DNA from: a virus
Taxonomy: Duplodnaviria; Caudoviricetes
Reading direction: 5' to 3' (one strand)
Length of the DNA stretch: 64,000 nt
IMG/VR virus record: IMGVR_UViG_3300031992_000033
Span: 32,001-96,000 of that record
This document shows positions 46,474 to 46,940 of this stretch, piece by piece. Each line of letters starts with the position of its first letter. Position 1 is the first letter of the stretch. The position numbers and the translations under genes were made by a program. The notes under the pieces are model-generated. The model saw only the letters and a list, made by a program, of their open reading frames with translations, did no database searches and had not been told where the DNA came from.

Positions 46474-46509
46474 CAAAAATACCACTGCTGGCTGTTACAC
46501 CAACAGTGG
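46474..46509 (-). terminator. intrinsic terminator closing the large ncRNA
   Basis: CCACTGTTGG-TGTAACAG-CCAGCAGTGG followed by TATTTTTG. Confidence 0.7.
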
Positions 46510-46940
46510 CTCGAGAATGTTATAAATCTACCAATCACATATGAAGTCTCACATCGATGTAGTGCCAGCACTTATCAACAAGACTTAATGGAGTTTTGCG
46601 TCTGTCACTAGACCAATCATCTTATATGTTTGGGATTTAAACCATTTATCTGCTTGAGCAGTGTGCAGAATGGACCACTTGGCGGGAACTCCGTCGGTAT
46701 CACCAGCCCGTAACACTTAGGGAACAGATCTCAGATTCAGAGGAATCCTTGGCACGCTCCCTATCAGAAGAGTCACTATTGTCAGACGGTCAGAAATTCA
46801 GAATTTGGAAATGAGCCTACTATCCGATTCTCGTTAATCTAGTGACGTTAGACTAACCCGTCTGGATTATTCCTTCATATTGCTATTTACCCTTAGCCAC
46901 AAGAGTATTTTGTTTTTCAAGGAACAACTATTTTTTAACT
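46475..46940 (-). ncRNA. large structured non-coding RNA (about 465 nt, multiple pseudoknots)
   Basis: No ORF of 60 aa or more; bounded by promoter and terminator; at least 8 complementary segment pairs, including end-to-end and crossing pairs. Confidence 0.7.

Follow-up and report, generated by a model that had tools for sequence, protein, structure and literature searches.

A non-coding RNA unit with a boxA-like motif opens the leftward early arm of SPbeta-like phages

Introduction

Few large non-coding RNAs have been described from phages, and to our knowledge no function has been assigned to any of them. Among them, ROOL and GOLLD are large ornate RNAs of Firmicutes and their phages. Both are found near tRNA genes (PMC5737381). 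The RNA described here is encoded in a 64-kb stretch of DNA (the window, analysed at its full length), which is part of a 123.7-kb IMG/VR phage record. It resembles ROOL and GOLLD in being several hundred nucleotides long, phage-borne, patchily distributed and without an established function and, as regards its relatives only, in having tRNA genes close by. It differs from them in lacking any covariance-model similarity, in the few supported helices and the absence of a demonstrated pseudoknot in the window copy, and in its fixed position directly behind an early promoter.

A second group of comparable systems acts on the transcribing polymerase. How Nus factors bring about processive antitermination is understood in detail for E. 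coli and lambda; we know of little work on it in Firmicutes, and of no description for SPbeta-like phages. With rrn leaders (boxB and boxA; NusB/S10, NusA and NusG) and the lambda nut sites, the unit shares a boxA-like 12-mer early in a long untranslated transcript and terminators downstream, as well as, in relatives, a preceding hairpin (four of them) and tRNAs in the same unit. Unlike those systems, it carries a motif identical to no published boxA, no N-like or Q-like protein has been identified, another 0.4-0.8 kb of RNA, which has conserved islands of its own, lies beyond the motif, and Nus binding is proposed only. The lambda pR' 6S RNA/tR', the HK022 put RNA and the Bacillus EAR RNA offer the same arrangement of promoter, untranslated leader, strong terminator and long operon, together with modification of the polymerase by the nascent RNA, which is proposed for the unit. 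These elements have defined structures and measure 70-200 nt, whereas the unit is far longer, its active part is undefined, and it has no sequence or model similarity to them. Finally, the unit is reminiscent of the CI RNA and leader of phage P4 immunity in that the early operon opens with a non-coding RNA, which precedes a point of termination; in contrast to P4, no conserved complementary target sites were found for it.

Boundaries and coding content of the unit

The large terminase of the window phage is 42% identical to those of SPbeta and phi3T, and the gene arms of the window diverge around 47000-47600. The region between the arms (47060-47575) contains G/C-run repeats and, after them, about 230 bp of AT microrepeats of the TATAG/TAGTA type; this two-part architecture is kept in every relative, with differing sequence, and several Logan contigs terminate within it. 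The leftward arm begins with the following features, all on the minus strand:

46947-46975, minus strand: early leftward promoter of the extended -10, sigma-A type (TTTACA, 17-nt spacer, TG-extended TATACT; 10 of 12 hexamer matches plus the TG)
46474-46510, minus strand: intrinsic terminator (hairpin 46510-46481, with a stem of 11-12 bp including 6 GC, the loop UGUAACAG and the U tract ATTTTT)
46174-46434, minus strand: gene for the first protein of the arm (86 aa), with AAGGAGG as ribosome site

Transcription is predicted to start near 46940. Promoters at the equivalent place in relatives reach 11 of 12 hexamer matches, and the hairpin at 46510-46481 is the top-ranked terminator-like site in a scan of the roughly 20 kb from 27000 to 46990. 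Between these two signals, 46486-46940 is the sole stretch of at least 350 nt in the whole 64-kb window in which every frame lacks an ORF of at least 60 aa. The interval from the terminator to the first gene (46434) contains no promoter-like site, and the next good one is found 2.2 kb downstream. Promoter, terminator, ORF-free gap and a first gene without a promoter-like site of its own together bear out the original prediction of a non-coding stretch running from promoter (46975-46947) to terminator (46510-46481); the unit of about 465 nt is therefore a genuine non-coding transcription unit. Searches of Pfam and PHROG returned no match for the small proteins flanking it, including the 86-aa product.

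That the unit carries one or more tiny peptide genes is very improbable. The sequence AUGAAGGAAUAA (46879-46868) lies 11 nt after AAGGG, as a short reading frame might require; against this, the longest ORFs (43 and 37 aa) have GTG starts and lack a ribosome site, the frame across the shared GGTGATACC island closes after nine codons in the relative L068, and no ORF is conserved across the family.

Elsewhere in the leftward arm, the segment 45100-45525 (minus strand), in and around a 181-aa ORF, has a folding z-score of -7.8 against shuffles, the extreme of the eight coding controls used below, and that ORF is immediately preceded by a 9-bp terminator-like hairpin (45658-45637). The only group I intron of the window (Rfam RF00028, 58.5 bits) is located at 52999-53295 (plus strand), between the ORFs 51354-53024 and 53463-54227, and a second one (69.5 bits) is present in the relative G005 (L085:80-293, minus strand).

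Comparison with known RNA families

The unit had been proposed to be either a compact relative of ROOL and GOLLD or a new class. Kinship with these RNAs found no backing in covariance models: cmscan with Rfam 15 on 46300-47350 at E<=10 gave two chance matches only, and the equivalent stretches of twelve related loci gave nothing at gathering or at permissive thresholds (E<=1, E<=5). OLE, group I and II introns, tRNA, tmRNA, RNase P and 6S RNA were likewise discarded, with no covariance-model or ARAGORN match to the unit, and ARAGORN detected neither tRNA nor tmRNA in the 64 kb of the window. Judged by these sequence searches, the unit belongs to a small RNA family new to Rfam, which opens the leftward early arm of SPbeta-like phages.

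Relatives of the unit and contents of the slot

Searches with the RNA itself were of little use. A blastn search of GenBank phages with the unit and its counterpart from L078 as queries gave no match, BLAST of the unit against five related IMG/VR records returned short words only, and nhmmer across all fetched loci found no homologue of the window copy. Since these DNA searches were empty, relatives were sought through neighbouring genes. The terminase led to the IMG/VR relatives G001-G005, to which a DNA pattern scan also contributed G005, and contigs from Logan and ENA were reached through a winged helix-turn-helix (wHTH) protein (47630-48193) and the 181-aa protein (45068-45613); searches with neighbouring proteins in IMG/VR, JGI metagenomes and GTDB genomes were mostly empty. 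L080 is identical to L081, and two of the loci go by two names (L085 is G005, L056 is G001). Among the patterns tried, a two-motif DNA pattern yielded three chance matches in coding DNA in JGI metagenomes, and the upstream 16-mer retrieved from IMG/VR G003 and unrelated matches only. The word CWGACGGCTTAACCGCWG identified one true member in IMG/VR (G005), the other matches being a coding gene of other phages.

In these phages the order of elements does not vary: wHTH gene, AT microrepeat, G/C-run repeats, consensus promoter and leftward arm. Nine distinct ORF-free units of 465-880 nt, followed by a small gene, occupy the slot behind the promoter and are here called type A. They comprise the window copy and eight metagenomic relatives (L074, G003, L077, L068, L078, L079, L080 and G005), all from SPbeta-like phages of gut and rumen-type metagenomes; with about 465 nt, the window copy is the shortest known in a family that spans about 0.47-0.88 kb. 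The 3' terminator is missing from most type A members, which run straight into the first gene. At the other end, L078 has a terminator-like hairpin of 12 bp, 7 of them GC, followed by a U tract (2235-2263, plus strand), some 6 nt past the predicted RNA start, and similar 5' hairpins are present in L077 and L068.

Not every related phage has a type A unit. In G001, L069 and L071 the arm begins with a gene for a 140-156-aa protein and a terminator, followed by a different ORF-free stretch of about 800 nt (type B); G002 keeps the protein gene without any RNA of this kind. Presence, absence and type of the RNA thus differ among phages whose terminases are 90% identical. The type B loci (L056:560-1330, plus strand, equivalent to G001; L069:2150-2930, minus strand; L071:841-1603, minus strand) are ORF-free and about 770-800 nt long. 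RNAalifold predicts 178 pairs for them, 56 with compensatory double changes, and a tRNA-like acceptor/T-arm (GGTTCGAWTCC) stands near the 3' end; no Rfam match was obtained. Type B looks like a separate new large structured phage RNA, unrelated to type A.

In five type A relatives, tRNA genes lie 0.3-0.5 kb downstream of the unit, past the first small gene (L077:1193-1259; L078:3375-3444 and 3969-4037; L079:2310-2381 and 3343-3412; L080:2520-2589; L085:5944-6012). The 3' ends of the G003 and L077 RNAs contain a tRNA-like T-arm (GGTTCAATTCC and GGTGCAATTCC, respectively) that ARAGORN does not call.

Conserved islands and covariation in type A RNAs

Whole-family MAFFT alignments were unreliable, and collinear islands were used instead. 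Four of them recur along the RNA. Island 1, AAGU(U/G)AAG, is situated at the 5' end, right after the start. Island 2, the boxA-like word GTTCCTTGA, is exact in five members (window, G003, L077, L080/L081 and L085) and has near variants in L074 and L079; no clear copy exists in L068 and L078. It is the most widely conserved island of the family. The third, M1, is GRKGRTACC (GRUACC as RNA core), and the fourth, M2, contains GTTGATAAG, which is also present in L077 and L079 and extends to GTTGATAAGTGC in four members. The second and fourth islands are placed in the window as follows:

46914-46925, minus strand: boxA-like motif GUUCCUUGAAAA (short form GUUCCUUGA), about 15 nt past the predicted start
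46568-46579, minus strand: M2 island GUUGAUAAGUGC, the longest word shared in the family, exact in the window, G003, L068 and L078

Within the IMG/VR records, GTTCCTTGANAA (island 2) has a single copy in each of G003 and G005 and is absent from G001 and G002; the word therefore belongs to the type A RNA and not to the arm in general.

A single subgroup among the relatives covaries clearly. The core shared by L074, L080 and L085 has 87 predicted pairs with 92.7% of cells paired, and 19 pairs carry double-sided changes; shuffles give 7.4 +/- 2.1, with 0 of 500 reaching the observed value, and slid partners give 2-4. The structure was, however, predicted from these three sequences themselves. Between L068 and L078, a core of 300 nt is almost unchanged and its flanks have diverged, with compensatory changes in several stems, and the MFE z-scores of four relatives range from -4.2 to -5.7. 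Two covariance models built on L074/L080/L085 match their own sequences only and miss the window. The window copy is therefore a reduced, divergent member, whose kinship with that subgroup rests on short collinear words and one isostructural hairpin. Since the units of the relatives are ORF-free and have sequence islands and some covarying helices, a function at the RNA level is likely for this family without an Rfam entry.

These data also bear on whether the slot is a DNA-level element or a non-functional spacer, that is, an origin or control region in which the shared words are protein sites on DNA or leftovers of recombination. We regard this as improbable. It would fit the adjoining AT microrepeats, G/C-run repeats and DnaD-like wHTH gene, the poor alignment of the members, with nhmmer finding no homologue of the window copy, and a folding of the window copy no better than that of coding controls. 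The pentamers TCTGA (22 copies against 6.9 expected) and GATCT (24 against 6.6) are enriched in the family, as protein sites could be; the enrichment is strand-asymmetric, however, as it affects the RNA strand more than the complements. The window has six CTGA in 70 nt (46801-46731) and no TCAG. Further points against a DNA-level element are that the unit always lies downstream of a consensus promoter in a single orientation and that the origin-like AT and G/C repeat tracts fall outside it. The covarying stems use G-U pairs, which work on the transcribed strand only, and the antisense strand folds less well (z-score of +0.6 against -1.9 for the sense strand, unit without terminator). Together, G-U-containing covarying stems, strand-biased words and poorer antisense folding argue against a purely DNA-level element.

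The fold of the window copy

The original prediction drew an ornate fold with eight pairings, several of them long-range or pseudoknotted. All eight are complementary at their coordinates, as proposed, yet complementarity of this kind does not exceed chance: words of 6 to 9 nt with a perfect complement occur in the 466 nt about as often as in dinucleotide shuffles (3 against 2.1 for 8-mers and 1 against 0.5 for 9-mers). No counterpart of any long-range pair was found in relatives, and the specific long-range and pseudoknot pairings are not supported. The sole pseudoknot that can be mapped onto relatives, by means of conserved anchors, pairs the M1 loop with a segment upstream of M2 (46692-87/46595-90); it exceeds control windows in one of six members, which is not the window's. 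Nor is the folding unusually stable. The MFE z-score of the unit is -2.8 with the terminator and -1.9 without it, and the latter falls within the range of eight coding segments from the same arm and strand (-0.35 to -7.8). With chance-level pairings, control-level z-scores and an unconserved pseudoknot, the terms ornate and pseudoknotted have no measurable basis here, and the picture of a multiply pseudoknotted RNA does not hold for the window copy. A weak z-score does not count against structure, however: the type B RNA, with its 56 compensatory pairs, scores merely -2.5. For that reason the drawn fold is to be seen as unsupported, not as refuted.

Two further helices of the window copy can be compared with relatives:

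46783-46864, minus strand: candidate helix CAGACGG/CCGUCUG (7 of 7 Watson-Crick pairs), enclosing about 68 nt; it is the second pairing of the original prediction and part of the MFE structure
46681-46708, minus strand: M1 hairpin, GGC-U-GG-U-GAU-A-CC[GAC]GG-A-GUU-C-CC-GCC, which holds the family island GRUACC and is present in the local MFE structure

A motif of the form CWGACGG...CCGCWG makes a covarying hairpin in L074, L080 and L085. As the model of this hairpin does not detect the window version, homology between the two is only suggested. The M1 hairpin has the same layout in the window, L085 and L080 (2-3-2 bp with two 1x1 loops). In L085 and L080 it reads GG-A-GGU-A-CC...GG-A-ACC-G-CC, which compared with the window amounts to one double-sided change (A-U vs G-C) and two changes to wobble; its local z-score (+0.86) is not significant. 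The terminator stem is homologous in the window, L074 and L079: each of its 33 cells is paired, and compensatory changes affect 5 of 11 pairs. Only 1 of 500 shuffles reaches this degree of covariation, and slid controls have 0-1 such pairs. Comparative support in the window concerns two stems only, the terminator stem and the small, irregular M1 hairpin. An M2 helix (UUGAU/AUCRA) was discarded as being at chance level, given that 41% of random trials yield a 6/6 partner.

Pairing within the leader would be central if the unit were a device for RNA immunity or attenuation in the manner of the phage P4 leader and CI RNA, in which leader pairing sets termination. SPbeta-like phages are temperate, a terminator separates leader and early genes, L078 has its terminator-like hairpin right after the start, and the unit contains long-range complementary words such as the 9 bp at 46846-38/46612-04. 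The internal complementarity is at chance level, however, and no long-range pair is traceable in relatives. A search for antisense targets elsewhere in the window found none longer than 13 nt, which weakens the model further, and we consider it quite improbable.

The boxA-like motif and a possible leader function

Island 2 resembles the boxA element of ribosomal operons. The form UUGUUCCUUGAAA agrees with the rrn boxA consensus of B. subtilis, AUGAUCUUUGAAA, at 10 of 13 positions and with boxA of E. coli, UGCUCUUUAACA, at 8 of 12, neither of which may be the consensus of the actual host (both consensus sequences from PMC13753749). NusB of B. subtilis binds boxA-like RNA of similar sequence (PMC13753749). 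In G003, L077, L080 and L085 a hairpin ends 3-7 nt upstream of the motif, in the boxB-boxA order of rrn leaders; the window copy, whose motif is 15 nt from the start, has no such hairpin. A second exact copy of GTTCCTTGAAAAA is found on the same strand at 39957-39969 (minus), within a 703-aa PcfJ-like ORF, and may be due to chance (three matches against 0.9 expected with up to one mismatch).

The explanation that we favour, tentatively and as somewhat short of probable, is that the unit is a new phage early leader RNA in which, by analogy with these systems, a boxA-like signal would drive the polymerase through the unit's own terminator. The original prediction was right about a non-coding RNA unit; it did not consider the role as a cis-acting leader to which the conserved boxA-like motif points. 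Host RNA polymerase would initiate at the strong sigma-A promoter and, about 15 nt further on, the nascent RNA would expose GUUCCUUGAAAA. As in rrn leaders and lambda nut, the motif may load the host NusB/S10 and other Nus factors and thereby protect the polymerase against termination. In this modified state the enzyme would traverse 0.4 kb of folded RNA that is not translated, pass the strong terminator of the unit and enter the early genes, whereas an unmodified polymerase would halt at the terminator and free a discrete RNA of 465 nt. The binding of Nus factors, the read-through and whatever the released RNA may do are inferred.

Several features speak for such a leader. The long ORF-free gap is bounded by a promoter and the top-ranked terminator, and the early genes have no nearby promoter of their own. 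The boxA-like word tracks the type of RNA, it is preceded by a hairpin in four relatives, and it is followed by a long untranslated RNA, by terminators and, in five relatives, by tRNA genes. Where a terminator stem is present (window, L074 and L079), it covaries between the three. The nine ORF-free units in an equivalent slot, the structure seen in relatives and the better folding of the sense strand count in favour of the leader as well, as does the binding of B. subtilis NusB to a similar RNA. Other features speak against it. The motif departs from each of the two published boxA consensus sequences at no fewer than three positions and is not clear in L068 and L078, and the upstream hairpin is missing in the window. 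A NusB/S10 site is expected to be single-stranded, yet in the MFE structure of the window the motif is paired with a downstream AAGGAA. The close relatives G001 and G002 have this arm but neither the motif nor this RNA, so the element is not essential to the arm, and most members lack the 3' terminator, so that the combination of leader and terminator is not family-wide. Moreover, the task of a boxA of about 12 nt leaves the 0.4-0.8 kb of RNA and its islands unexplained.

Trans-acting alternatives

A further reading is nearly as likely, close behind that of a cis-acting leader and not mutually exclusive with it: a free-standing, structured RNA with the lifestyle of ROOL and GOLLD, made first on infection and acting in trans. 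We consider it possible, on the doubtful side. Such an RNA would be released by the terminator or by processing, and would either act on a target in the host or phage or self-assemble; the boxA-like word would serve in its structure or in protein binding, or would simply guard a long untranslated RNA against premature termination. In its favour, the slot carries large structured RNAs in relatives, including the unrelated type B with its 56 compensatory pairs and tRNA-like end, and tRNA genes follow the unit in five relatives, as they do near ROOL and GOLLD (PMC5737381). The variation in presence, absence and type among phages with 90% identical terminases is as expected for an accessory function, and the conserved terminator would give a discrete product in three members. 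On the other hand, no covariance model, whether of ROOL, GOLLD or another family, matches the unit, the window copy has little measurable structure beyond two hairpins, it has no complementarity of more than 13 nt to any other transcript of the window, the window is devoid of tRNA genes, and most members continue into the first gene without a terminator.

An extended form of this idea, which we hold to be unlikely, sees in the slot a cassette site for large, fast-evolving trans-acting RNAs, of which type A and the unrelated type B would be two, made before any protein. If this were true, these RNAs could, for example, disarm host defence or capture a host RNA-binding factor, and a third kind of large phage RNA would stand beside ROOL and GOLLD.

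Biological significance

Type A RNAs have three properties that are of use in the study of such molecules: a fixed, interpretable place at the very start of early transcription; a conserved boxA-like word with terminators after it, which is a candidate handle on mechanism; and natural variation in presence, absence and type among near-identical phages. Returning to the leader that we favour, if the motif recruits Nus factors, a Firmicute phage would be borrowing the antitermination machinery of rRNA synthesis; if it does not, type A would represent a new orphan class of large RNA that merits structural study.
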